DNA from: a phage
Strand: one strand, 5' to 3'
Assembly: GCA_036253035.1 (NCBI GenBank)
Contig: GCA_036253035.1_4123.1
DNA: 64,000 bases
The notes below the pieces were generated by a model. That model made no database searches. It was not told where the DNA came from and saw only the letters and a program-made list of their open reading frames with translations. Of this stretch, positions 57,975 to 60,755 are shown one piece after another. The first letter of the stretch is position 1. Every line of letters begins with the position of its first letter. The position numbers were made by a program, and so were the translations under genes.

Positions 57975-58346
57975 TTATGACATACGCTTATTATGAATGG
58001 AATTATGAATGGATTTTAAATAATTATATAATTTTATCAATCCACTACCAGTAGCTACAAACAGTAGTGCTGTTGGTATCATACATCCAAACATGGTTAT
58101 TAATTCATGTATTTCCATACCATCACTATTTGGTCCCACATCAAATATAACAACCAAAACAACACCTAAAATGCTTAGACAATAATATCCCATAAAGACC
58201 ATAAAAGTGATATATCCGGCACTTGATTTAATATTACATAACATATTATACACTGGATTGATACAGAAGAAGTATAATAACCATACCAGTGTTCCAGTAC
58301 TGAACATAATAATTGAAATAATGGAAAATATCTCACGGTAACTCAT
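57975..58346 (-). CDS. small integral membrane protein
   Basis: Predicted hydrophobic helices; coupled to upstream gene. Confidence 0.55.
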   Translation of the reverse strand: MSYREIFSIISIIMFSTGTLVWLLYFFCINPVYNMLCNIKSSAGYITFMVFMGYYCLSILGVVLVVIFDVGPNSDGMEIHELITMFGCMIPTALLFVATGSGLIKLYNYLKSIHNSIHNKRMS

Positions 58347-58347
58347 A

Positions 58348-58710
58348 TTATTTCCTCATACCCAAACGTTGGTGGATTTCAGAGATCTTTATATACAATA
58401 GTACCACAAGGTGCAGTACTAAACAACATATAATTACGGCTAATACCAATGAACATATCATAAGACCAAAGGTTATTGTATTCAAAGATGATGTGAACAG
58501 TCCAATTATTAATACAATAAAACCAAAATTGAATACTGTACCCAACACAGTATATGCTGGACTATATCTCTTTTGGATTACATCATATATATTTGATAAT
58601 GGTCGCTTATGGAAGTACTTCCCAATGCACACGAATGCATTCAGTGAGAAGATAAATGTATACGCCATTACTAGTAATTGACCAACGAAAGATAATTCTA
58701 TCCCGTTCAT
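58348..58710 (-). CDS. small integral membrane protein
   Basis: Start moved to ATG of MNGIELSFVGQLLVMAY with GAGGT RBS. Confidence 0.55.
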   Translation of the reverse strand: MNGIELSFVGQLLVMAYTFIFSLNAFVCIGKYFHKRPLSNIYDVIQKRYSPAYTVLGTVFNFGFIVLIIGLFTSSLNTITFGLMICSLVLAVIICCLVLHLVVLLYIKISEIHQRLGMRK

Positions 58711-58711
58711 A

Positions 58712-59080
58712 CTAACCTCGTTTACGTTTTTTAATTGTACTGTGCATCTTTTCGAAATAGGGAACCAAAACATATTGAACAGTTTGCCAGATAACCATTA
58801 GATTATGCACTGCACCACCAAGGATACCAAACACTAGAACAATAATTGCCATAATAGGATCACCGTCTACCATACCCCATTTAAAGATATGTAAAATCCA
58901 AGCAATGACTAGACAAAATAAACTAAGCCAATACGTAATGAAAAATCCGGCTTGTAATTCATAATCATCAGCAATTTCATCGTATACCGTTTCTAAAAAT
59001 GATACACAAAAGAATTTACCAATTATAACCACAGTACTAATAAACAGCATAGCAGTTAAGATAATAAGAGCAATTTCCAT
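58712..59080 (-). CDS. small integral membrane protein
   Basis: Hydrophobic segments; C-terminal KKRKRG. Confidence 0.55.
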   Translation of the reverse strand: MEIALIILTAMLFISTVVIIGKFFCVSFLETVYDEIADDYELQAGFFITYWLSLFCLVIAWILHIFKWGMVDGDPIMAIIVLVFGILGGAVHNLMVIWQTVQYVLVPYFEKMHSTIKKRKRG

Positions 59081-59394
59081 TACATCCCTCGTTTACGCTT
59101 TTGATTGCGTCTAAATTCTGTTAGTCCACGGCTAATCGGCGGCATCAGACTACATAAAAAAGTAACAGTTGTTGGTAGTAACATCAAGTCAATCATTGCA
59201 GTGTTATCTGGTGGATCAAAAACCAAAAAATACACACAAGAAACACTAATAATGGTTGAACCGATAAAAGGAATACAAAATTCTTTTATCTGTTTTTCAA
59301 CATAATCAAACATCTTGAGTACAAATAAAAATCCAACCCAACACATAATGAAATAGAATGAATACAACGTGTAAATCAATGTTACTATATCCAT
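59080..59394 (-). CDS. small integral membrane protein
   Basis: Hydrophobic segments; C-terminal RRNQKRKRGM. Confidence 0.55.
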   Translation of the reverse strand: MDIVTLIYTLYSFYFIMCWVGFLFVLKMFDYVEKQIKEFCIPFIGSTIISVSCVYFLVFDPPDNTAMIDLMLLPTTVTFLCSLMPPISRGLTEFRRNQKRKRGM

Positions 59395-59732
59395 TAGTAC
59401 CTCGCATCAGGAACTTTAGCACGTAACTTATGAACGACTGGGAACAACAACAAACTTACATATGCAATAGTTGAACCCCAATAGAATACTAATACAATTG
59501 GTTCACCATTAGAACGGAAACCTCTACTAATCATTGAGTAGTGAATAATAGGCATAATCATCGCCATACCAAACCATGCGTGTAATTTTAATTGCAGCAT
59601 GTTATCAGCGATGAATACTGAAATTGGTCGTTTAAAGAACCACATCAGAAAGTAGAATCCAGCACTAATAATATAGTACATGGTACTAACTTTCATATAC
59701 CACGGCAGTAAATCAATAAAGTACTCCATCAT
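59394..59732 (-). CDS. small integral membrane protein (W-F/Y-FK-R/K family)
   Basis: MWFFKRP after first hydrophobic helix. Confidence 0.6.
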   Translation of the reverse strand: MMEYFIDLLPWYMKVSTMYYIISAGFYFLMWFFKRPISVFIADNMLQLKLHAWFGMAMIMPIIHYSMISRGFRSNGEPIVLVFYWGSTIAYVSLLLFPVVHKLRAKVPDARY

Positions 59733-60076
59733 TCCTCCGGTATCTTATTTCGAAGTTCAATCATAACACAACAAATTTTAATGGTCAATATAAAAGTTAA
59801 ACATATCATCCCAAGTGTGCCGTAAACTGCGGAAAAAGCTGGTAGTACCTTTCCTGTGAGTGTTGCTACAATACATGCAATCAATGTTGATGCAAACAAC
59901 GATTGATTAATGACAGAATTCATAAAATCTTCACCATTACGTTTATAGAATTGTCGTTTAAAATACCATCCTAGAAACATAACTACCCAAAATGATACAT
60001 AAGTTGTTAGAATAATCCCTGCAAGTGAATGTGCAACTGGACTACTCCTTAAAAACTCAAGATAAGCTTCAAACAT
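59729..60076 (-). CDS. small integral membrane protein (W-F/Y-FK-R/K family)
   Basis: GWYFKRQFY after first helix. Confidence 0.6.
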   Translation of the reverse strand: MFEAYLEFLRSSPVAHSLAGIILTTYVSFWVVMFLGWYFKRQFYKRNGEDFMNSVINQSLFASTLIACIVATLTGKVLPAFSAVYGTLGMICLTFILTIKICCVMIELRNKIPEE

Positions 60077-60426
60077 TAGAAGTCTCCGCGAATTTTATCT
60101 CTACCATGAATAATGAGATGGATTAAGTATGCAACTAACCAAATGAACAATCCAAAGAATACAATATATTGTGAGATTGAGTTCAAGTGAGGATTAGCAC
60201 AATAAATTAAGTGTGCCATAAGACCAACAATTGCAAACAAACCTTGAACAAGTGTGTAAAGAACTAGTGATGAATTCCTCACTGGATACAGTTTAAAAAC
60301 AATTTTCTTTTTAAAATACCATAGTACTACAACTAGTGCATGATAAAAGAAAAAACCAAAAAGATAAATCAAAGTAATACTAATCATTGTATCTGATTTA
60401 AAAAATTCTAACATTAGAATCCCCAT
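60076..60426 (-). CDS. small integral membrane protein (W-F/Y-FK-R/K family)
   Basis: Close paralog of next gene (LWYFKKKIVFKLY). Confidence 0.65.
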   Translation of the reverse strand: MGILMLEFFKSDTMISITLIYLFGFFFYHALVVVLWYFKKKIVFKLYPVRNSSLVLYTLVQGLFAIVGLMAHLIYCANPHLNSISQYIVFFGLFIWLVAYLIHLIIHGRDKIRGDF

Positions 60427-60755
60427 TTAAAGTTATCACGAGCTTTAATAATAAAGTACATAGTACACACCAATAACCAGACGATTAGTCCTGAAAACAC
60501 AACATATTGTGTAATGTGTGGTGTATTATCAATTTGTAACATGTAAATCACATATGTCATCACACCAAATAAAATAAACCCACCTTGTATAATGCTATAT
60601 ACAACTAAGAATACATTATCATACGAATACAATTTAAAAACAACTTTCCTTTTAAAATACCAAAGACTAATTACAATTGAATGATAAAACAAGAATACAA
60701 ACATGTATATCAGTGTAATACCAAGCATTATATTAGATTCAAAAAACTCACGCAT
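60414..60755 (-). CDS. small integral membrane protein (W-F/Y-FK-R/K family)
   Basis: LWYFKRKVVFKLY; first gene after promoter. Confidence 0.65.
   Translation of the reverse strand: MREFFESNIMLGITLIYMFVFLFYHSIVISLWYFKRKVVFKLYSYDNVFLVVYSIIQGGFILFGVMTYVIYMLQIDNTPHITQYVVFSGLIVWLLVCTMYFIIKARDNFKWGF

Follow-up and report, generated by a model that had tools for sequence, protein, structure and literature searches.

What purpose eight small membrane-protein genes in a row may serve in a phage, and whether such genes belong to one family, are the questions raised by the locus at positions 57975-60755 of a 64,000-nucleotide stretch of phage DNA (assembly GCA_036253035.1, contig GCA_036253035.1_4123.1), the whole of which is referred to here as the window. 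A first-pass annotation, made from the sequence without database searches, had described this locus as an array of small membrane-protein paralogs and had raised superinfection exclusion or modulation of the host membrane as possible roles. In the present study, the array was borne out in a stronger form than had been claimed because, judged by profile comparisons, all eight genes, and not only four, are diverged paralogs of a single family. It is well supported that this family of three-helix proteins of 100-127 amino acids (aa) is previously undescribed, that the eight genes are coupled in translation and form a single transcription unit, and that the array is conserved as a hallmark of RaK2-like jumbo phages of Enterobacterales. 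Regarding function, we tentatively favor an early inner-membrane module that may act as a set in host-envelope takeover or superinfection immunity.

Organization of the array

The array region (2.9 kb) is 99.4% identical to Escherichia phages 121Q, UB, and CRJP21 and 99.0% identical to G17, and it matches 37 jumbo-phage records, which identifies the window, according to the taxonomy of the matched records, as part of the genome of an Asteriusvirus (121Q/G17-like) jumbo phage of E. coli. The array genes are labeled "hypothetical protein" throughout these records, with a single record naming one gene "membrane protein".

Eight consecutive open reading frames (ORFs) of 104-141 aa had been reported at this locus, and their presence was confirmed on the minus strand with longest-ORF lengths, for genes 1 to 8, of 113, 116, 115, 112, 104, 122, 141, and 123 aa. 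With the starts that are annotated in G17 and supported by orthologs, the lengths become 113, 112, 115, 112, 104, 122, 120, and 123 aa; on the basis of this annotation and of ortholog alignment, the probable starts are 60414 for gene 2 and 58710 for gene 7. The eight genes are as follows.

60414-60755, minus strand: gene 1, 113 aa; matches phrog_19454 (E = 1e-51); extra copy of the gene 1/2 type.
60076-60414, minus strand: gene 2, 112 aa from MLEFF (longest ORF from 60426); TAATG overlap with gene 1.
59729-60076, minus strand: gene 3, 115 aa; motifs WYFKR and LRNKIPEE; matches phrog_19046 and, at 1e-5, phrog_16874 ("membrane protein").
59394-59732, minus strand: gene 4, 112 aa; motifs WFFKRP and LRAKVPD; ATGA overlap with gene 3; the G17 record annotates the second Met as the start.
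59080-59394, minus strand: gene 5, 104 aa; motifs FLFVLK and FRRNQKRKRG.
58712-59080, minus strand: gene 6, 122 aa; motifs GKFFCV and MHSTIKKRKRG.
58348-58710, minus strand: gene 7, 120 aa from MNGIEL (longest ORF from 58773); motifs GKYFHKRP and IHQRLGMRK.
57975-58346, minus strand: gene 8, 123 aa; motifs YFFCINP and IHNSIHNKRMS.

Five of the junctions between these genes are overlaps of 1-4 nt (four TAATG and one ATGA) and the other two are 1-nt spacers, and a GGAG- or GAGG-like Shine-Dalgarno sequence precedes each start within the last codons of the preceding gene. At the junctions in 58712-60416, the ribosome-binding sites fall in the R-G, E-E, A-R, and R-K codons that close the upstream genes.

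Sequence evidence for a single family

In BLASTP comparisons, genes 1 and 2 were the only linked pair (47% identity, E = 1e-35), the remaining pairs being insignificant, and the DNA of these two genes is 75% identical across the first 130 nt. The earlier description of the two promoter-proximal copies as close duplicates thus holds only in part. In PHROGs, the eight proteins fall into six groups of unknown function with a few weak cross-matches: PHROGs 19454, 19046, 27396, 33258, 26405, and 27618 give full-length matches to the window proteins (E = 1e-51 to 1e-70) except for gene 7, which lacks a strong match and is matched weakly by 26405, the gene 6 family. The "membrane protein" group 16874, which gene 3 also matches, is placed in the moron/host-takeover category. 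PHROGs divides the family into at least seven seemingly unrelated groups, none with an assigned function.

The relationship among the eight proteins was recovered with position-specific profiles, which were built using the orthologous arrays of four further lineages (EcMJ, A4, JNE01, and RaK2). The hhalign probabilities were 97% for types 3-4, 93% for types 3-5, 90% for types 6-8, 87% for types 6-7, 66% for types 1/2-3, and 40% for types 3-7, with reversed-sequence controls at or below 1.8%, and 14 of the 21 group pairs exceeded every reversed control. The merged profile of positions 1-5 aligned with that of positions 6-8 over 107 collinear columns at 96.1% probability (E = 3e-9; reversed control, 0.7%). 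Among the 242 ORFs of the window, a hidden Markov model (HMM) of positions 1-5 recovered genes 7, 8, and 6 alone (E = 3e-5 to 6e-4), and an HMM of positions 6-8 recovered gene 2. These profile and cross-HMM matches indicate that the paralogy extends to the whole array and that no additional copy lies inside the 64-kb window.

Two motifs mark the family. Motif 1, G-[WKY]-[FY]-F-[KC], lies at the cytoplasmic end of helix 1, and its F is found in 60 of 62 members; motif 2, [LFI]-[HR]-x-K-[IL] followed by K/R-rich residues, lies after helix 3, and its H/R is found in 61 of 61 members; both residues are present in all eight window proteins. The W-(F/Y)-F-K-(R/K) motif, noted earlier in at least four ORFs, was found in genes 1-4 as WYFKR, WYFKK, WYFKR, and WFFKR, and genes 5-8 carry the degenerate forms FLFVLK, KFFCV, KYFHKR, and YFFCI. 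Identity within ortholog groups is 41-45% for helix 1, loop 1, and the C-terminal tail and 24-28% for helix 2, loop 2, and helix 3.

Existing resources did not describe this family. Pfam gave sub-threshold noise alone for the eight proteins (DUF443, SUR7, Wzy), NCBIfam gave no match for the array proteins, PADLOC gave no match beyond a weak one to PycTM at E = 0.03, a profile search of the PDB gave no match (best E = 0.58), and a BFVD fold search returned solely the query's own ortholog. The literature on CBB, RaK2, Sharanji, UE-S1, and fEgEco12, together with general term searches, yielded no description of the array, nor of its homologs as a single family. Notes in the ph0011 record that name "Phi92_gp233" and "Phi92_gp231" were rejected as indications of homology, since Phi92 gp233 (75 aa) and gp231 (121 aa) are both unrelated.

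Membrane topology and predicted fold

The first-pass annotation had predicted three to four hydrophobic helices for each protein, of which three proved to be the better count. Hydropathy shows three hydrophobic segments in seven of the eight proteins; the gene 4 protein, which is aromatic-rich, has a lower score, yet it aligns with the other seven. AlphaFold2 modeled gene 3 as three long helices (predicted local distance difference test, pLDDT, 76) and gene 7 as helices 8-32, 36-73, and 76-119 (pLDDT 88; predicted template modeling score, pTM, 0.67), and six homologs in the GAP32 record are annotated "3 transmembrane domains shown using TMHMM 2.0 and Phobius". A four-helix topology was rejected because both models and the charge distribution give three. 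Transmembrane (TM) helices, the absence of which had been named as the result that would speak against the annotation, are thus predicted by hydropathy and by the models alike.

The orientation is indicated by charge. Loop 1 and the C-terminal tail together hold a mean of 7.2 lysine and arginine residues (K+R), about 4.8 of which on average are in the tail, versus 0.8 for the N-terminus and loop 2, and the inside value exceeds the outside value in 83 of 83 members. According to the positive-inside rule, this distribution predicts a periplasmic N-terminus and a cytoplasmic C-terminus. The periplasmic side would have the N-terminus, which is short and acidic, and the loop between helices 2 and 3, and the cytoplasmic side the loop between helices 1 and 2 together with the C-terminal helix, which is basic. 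Modeled helices 2 and 3 are 38-44 residues long, which is more than a bilayer requires, so that they likely form a small helical extension on the cytoplasmic side.

Distribution among related phages

The array was found in every related enterobacterial jumbo phage examined. It occupies the same locus in RaK2, GAP32, Serratia BF, and Erwinia Hallingskeid, as it does in two metagenomic phages. The copy number, counted by HMM or from annotation, is 4-11.

121Q/G17 type: 8 family copies.
PBECO4, EcMJ, and A4: 7 family copies each.
JNE01: 8 family copies and a solo copy about 8.5 kb upstream.
RaK2: 8 family copies.
GAP32: 6 family copies.
Serratia BF: 5 family copies.
Erwinia Hallingskeid: 10-11 family copies.
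324-kb metagenomic contig (L010): 9 family copies, plus 1.
16.7-kb metagenomic contig (L008): 4 family copies.

The arrays of GAP32 (gp522, 523, 525, 526, 526A, and 527), RaK2 (ORF309-316), K64-1, BF, and Hallingskeid consist of true homologs (family HMM E = 1e-5 to 1e-17) and share the size, three helices, motif positions, tandem layout, and place downstream of an NrdC.10-like gene, but they differ in copy number (5-11) and in motif 1, which reads W-x-[YF]-A-D-Y-Y and not W-Y-F-K-R. A gene of roughly 255-265 aa interrupts the arrays of GAP32 and BF. Solo members lie 5-8.5 kb upstream of the array at OR670491.1 281128-281460 (JNE01/Turkey5) and at 1134-1481 of L010, and EcMJ-type phages have a weak solo match at a similar distance (29% identity, E = 0.7); in the window phage, the corresponding position would lie past the end of the window.

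A word-indexed search of 5.8 billion proteins returned 19 matches, all from the same phage clade or from metagenomic/SRA contigs. An exhaustive HMM search of 1.84 billion representatives returned 33 matches of 44-127 aa save one spurious entry, and the greater divergence of GAP32-type members makes this number a lower bound; the spurious entry, P0032 (2109 aa), was rejected as a repetitive protein that matches many unrelated Pfams.

An NrdC.10-like gene precedes the array at every locus that shows the upstream flank, immediately so in most relatives examined. This arrangement was seen in the window, G17, PBECO4, EcMJ, ph0011, RaK2, A4, JNE01, GAP32, BF, Hallingskeid, L008, and L010, the 1-kb contigs being too short to show the flank. 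Wherever the downstream flank is visible, the array precedes convergent RCC1-like or structural genes. Xanthomonas phage XaC1 has no array at this locus, its ATPase gene directly abutting the RCC1-like genes, and T4 has no array near nrdC.10.

Evolution of the paralogs

Seven paralog types have one-to-one orthologs in Asteriusvirus, six of which are also present in Alcyoneusvirus, and orthologs are recognizable across at least five genera. The order of the types (those of genes 1-4, then 5, 6, 7, and 8) is kept even in the highly divergent 324-kb metagenomic phage. Between the window and RaK2, array orthologs are 22-39% identical and the neighboring ATPase is 54% identical. Gene 1 is an extra copy that is missing from PBECO4-, EcMJ-, slurp01-, and phAPEC6-like relatives, and gene 2 is the ortholog of the single PBECO4/EcMJ copy, with the PBECO4 gene showing 93-100% DNA identity per 60-nt block.

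The ratio of nonsynonymous to synonymous substitution rates (dN/dS) for the array genes is 0.13-0.36 in comparison with ph0011 and 0.10-0.40 in comparison with EcMJ, versus 0.017 for the neighboring ATPase in the ph0011 comparison. Values below 1 indicate real genes under purifying but relaxed constraint, and they bear on the most skeptical explanation of the locus, namely that these are chance or decayed hydrophobic ORFs in AT-rich DNA without a function. In its favor, the annotations are merely those of hypothetical or membrane proteins, the database contains truncated entries (P0018, P0019, and P0024), and gene 3 is cut short or largely absent in the Salmonella phages SD-1_S14 and SD-15_S21. 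However, both of these genomes are 20-40 kb shorter than their relatives, and the ATPase and several other genes of SD-1_S14 are fragmented as well; the loss of gene 3 is probably assembly damage and not biology, and since these records fragment other genes, the truncations were not counted as evidence of dispensability. With dN/dS well below 1 for all eight genes, orthologs across genera, intact ribosome-binding sites and coupled starts, and the confident model of gene 7, we consider the chance that these ORFs are without function to be negligible.

A more serious alternative is that the paralogs are independent modulators: inside the bilayer, each would bind a host inner-membrane protein of its own and inhibit or redirect it, so that the array would be a toolbox and not a complex. 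Candidate targets would be transporters, components of respiration or cell division, or abortive-infection effectors that are embedded in the membrane. Several observations agree with this idea: each paralog type has a helix 1 and an N-terminal sequence of its own that are conserved from genus to genus, the paralogs are only 8-17% identical to each other per region, the type that was duplicated varies with the lineage (gene 1/2 in 121Q, the type of gene 3 in RaK2, and that of gene 5 in JNE01), solo copies lie outside the array in JNE01 and L010, gene 1 is dispensable in close relatives, and protein evolution is faster in the array than in the ATPase. On the other hand, there is no homology to known inhibitors, the best-conserved parts are the family-wide elements on the cytoplasmic side and not the membrane hairpin of helices 2 and 3, and the set of paralogs and their order vary unusually little for a counter-defense toolbox. 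We regard independent modulation as possible, although doubtful.

Promoter, terminator, and the predicted timing of expression

The signals and genes bordering the array are as follows.

60785-60813, minus strand: sigma-70-like promoter, TTGACA-N17-TACTAT, 29-57 nt 5' of the gene 1 start codon, found by a promoter scan and in the sequence.
60823-61596, minus strand: NrdC.10-like P-loop/AAA protein, 257 aa, with its own stronger promoter at 61625-61654.
57946-57969, no strand assigned: hairpin, a palindromic 10-bp stem directly 3' of gene 8 in a 42-nt gap; a terminator in the G17 annotation.
57271-57933, minus strand: 220-aa protein, the downstream neighbor; no Pfam match; present in ph0011 and JNE01, absent from EcMJ.

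The array promoter is kept in ph0011, EcMJ, and PBECO4, and this conserved sigma-70-like sequence suggests transcription by the host RNA polymerase and hence early expression, as inferred from the consensus. The pattern TTGACA-N17-TAYNAT has six exact sites in the window versus 0.29 expected, all on the minus strand (4205, 20172, 20958, 37060, 39919, and 60785), and looks like the early-promoter consensus of the phage. Five of these six sites carry GTACT in or overlapping the spacer, and TAGTACTAT occurs seven times in the window versus 1.1 expected. No terminator was found between the NrdC.10-like ATPase gene and the array. At the other end, the T-run of the hairpin is on the plus-strand side only, which makes it a weak minus-strand terminator at best, so that read-through into 57271-57933 is possible and the 220-aa gene may be co-transcribed with the array.

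The predicted timing is of particular relevance to lysis control, in which the array would be the missing holin, antiholin, or pinholin set of the clade, causing a timed depolarization that releases a membrane-tethered endolysin. Class I holins of the lambda S105 type are small proteins with three TM helices, an N-out/C-in orientation, and a highly charged C-terminal tail, and signal-arrest endolysins are not known to require more than a depolarizing pinholin. The array proteins have the same architecture, with fewer than 150 aa, three TM helices, N-out/C-in topology, and a charged C-terminal tail. Moreover, neither a T-type holin nor an RI antiholin was found in RaK2 (PMC3622015), and the predicted endolysin of the clade, 121Q gp532, has an N-terminal TM domain of the signal-arrest type (PMC5259590). 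Nevertheless, early expression is argued by the sigma-70-type promoter on the strand with other early-type genes, no endolysin or spanin gene adjoins the array (the neighbors being the NrdC.10-like ATPase, the 220-aa protein, and RCC1-like proteins), the 121Q array (gp224-232) lies about 300 genes from the endolysin gene, five to eleven differentiated copies are unlike any holin locus, and no holin family in Pfam or PHROGs was matched at E <= 1. A study on Asteriusvirus reports a holin gene in fEgEco12 (PMC13070987), the array genes of which are only "hypothetical", so that its holin is presumably encoded elsewhere. A holin role for the array is therefore unlikely, and lysis control as a whole was given a very low probability.

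Flanking genes

The NrdC.10-like protein upstream of the array is 54% identical to RaK2 ORF307 ("nrdC.10") and 41% identical to the T4 homolog, and it gives a weak match to AAA_16. Its presence upstream of every array locus with a visible flank raises the possibility that the array proteins are membrane anchors, the cytoplasmic face of which (the loop 1 helix and the basic C-terminal helix) recruits a cytoplasmic factor of the phage or the host, or DNA, with this ATPase as one candidate partner. Consistent with such a role, the cytoplasm-side segments are the best conserved, modeled helices 2 and 3 exceed the need of a bilayer, and the C-terminal tails are rich in K+R. Other observations speak against this role: more than 1300 phage records, that of T4 among them, contain an NrdC.10 homolog, the array is missing at the locus in both XaC1 and T4, other genes separate most of the array from the ATPase gene in L008, GAP32, and BF, and the TH47/EcMJ-type ATPase and the array have different histories. 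The EcMJ/TH47-type NrdC.10-like ATPase gene (L004 5039-5809) is only 59-60% identical to window 60823-61596, while the adjacent array genes are 63-92% identical, which points to a recombination boundary close to the promoter-proximal end of the array. A gene order that is conserved among relatives is poor evidence that the products interact, and we consider membrane anchoring distinctly improbable.

On the downstream side, two RCC1-like beta-propeller paralogs (window 54948-57290, plus strand; Pfam matches below the curated cut-off) converge on the array. Such genes occur beside the array in blocks of two to five in EcMJ, ph0011, BF, Hallingskeid, and L010, a block is also present at the arrayless locus of XaC1, and a single RCC1-like gene stands beside the array in PBECO4 and L008.

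Relatives carry putative envelope genes directly after the array. In GAP32 (L020 6076-7031), L008 (9119-10091), and probably Serratia BF (L021 6025-7009), these encode a one-helix membrane protein of roughly 95 aa and a DUF1190 protein of roughly 207 aa, the DUF1190 label being recorded for GAP32 and L008 only. In A4 (L003 2898-3449), a 183-aa lipobox protein with a similar N-terminus occupies the same place. The lipobox reads LTGC in L008 and A4, and judging by it, the DUF1190 protein would be a lipoprotein. With the one-helix and DUF1190/lipobox neighbors, the locus looks like a cluster of envelope proteins; the window phage has the unrelated 220-aa gene at this position.

A possible module of the host envelope

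The reading that we tentatively prefer is that the array is an early inner-membrane module for host-envelope takeover or superinfection immunity, the members of which act as a set. The host RNA polymerase would transcribe the array from its own sigma-70-type promoter soon after infection, and coupled translation would yield similar amounts of the proteins, which would insert into the host inner membrane. They may then act together, probably as a hetero-oligomer held by a core on the cytoplasmic side that comprises helix 1, the F motif, and the [HR]-x-K helix, and as a set they would alter or protect the infected cell's envelope in a manner similar to T4 Imm, through superinfection immunity or host-membrane takeover and not through lysis. 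The roles raised by the first-pass annotation fit the early-type promoter and the envelope-protein neighborhood in relatives, and the one-to-one orthologs, the kept order of types, and the conserved helix 1, loop 1, and C-terminal tail argue for a differentiated set.

T4 Imm is a small, early, phage-encoded inner-membrane protein that changes the envelope of the infected cell. The likeness is one of analogy only: the sigma-70-like promoter and the predicted topology of the array proteins are consistent with an early inner-membrane protein of this type, but none of the eight gave a Pfam or PHROG match to the Imm family at E <= 1, and the array is a differentiated set of proteins with three helices and a basic C-terminal helix, whereas Imm is the product of a single gene.

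A number of points weigh against a set that acts in immunity or takeover. The slow turnover and the conserved order of the paralogs are unlike a simple arms-race exclusion family, and no homology to any known exclusion protein was found in Pfam or PHROGs at E <= 1. Tight packing of genes is normal in phages and is no proof of a complex. Both motifs sit where generic topogenic signals, such as the aromatic belt and positive-inside residues, are expected, and the conserved C-terminal tail may be partly constrained by dual coding with the next ribosome-binding site. The copy number of 4-11 and the variable presence of gene 1 among near-identical genomes indicate that a fixed stoichiometric complex is not required, and the early timing rests on a promoter consensus. 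A stricter version, in which seven or more paralogs would be obligate subunits of one early hetero-oligomeric ring or platform in the inner membrane with a common cytoplasmic collar, serving as a gated channel or as a device that seals or anchors the envelope, appears unlikely; such an assembly would be without a counterpart among known phage membrane proteins. Taken together, we rank the envelope or immunity set first, followed by independent modulators, membrane anchors, a holin/antiholin function, and, last, ORFs without a function.

Other features of the region

Upstream of the ATPase gene, a 60-nt intergenic cassette is present at 61605-61664 and 63563-63622 in two copies that are 90% identical. 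On the minus strand, it consists of a terminator-like GC-rich hairpin with a T-run, the 3' arm of which gives a TTGACT -35 element that is followed by N18 and TATAAT, the best promoter match of the region. In G17, three terminators of identical predicted energy (-17.00) are annotated at equivalent intergenic sites. The two copies bracket a segment (61667-63556) with a GC content of 27% versus about 33% nearby, which contains a 549-aa ORF with a C-terminal endonuclease-like stretch, YDFYVPDYNLIIEVDGAQH, recognized by eye, and a 76-aa ORF. The corresponding genes vary in size in G17, EcMJ ("HNH endonuclease"), and A4, which suggests a mobile endonuclease insertion.

Significance

Jumbo phages of the RaK2/121Q group are under development for therapy against E. 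coli and Klebsiella, and most of their genes are without a known role. The present study merges at least seven "unrelated" groups of hypothetical proteins into a single family that bears a signature, shows the array to be a conserved hallmark of the clade at a fixed locus, and offers a concrete model of early expression and of inner-membrane proteins in an N-out/C-in orientation with a constant cytoplasmic face. If lysis control were the true role, the gap of the missing holin noted for RaK2 would be filled. If the array instead confers superinfection immunity or serves host-membrane takeover, it would be a new, multi-subunit type among the few known exclusion devices of phages, and the design of phage cocktails would be affected because co-infecting phages could exclude each other.

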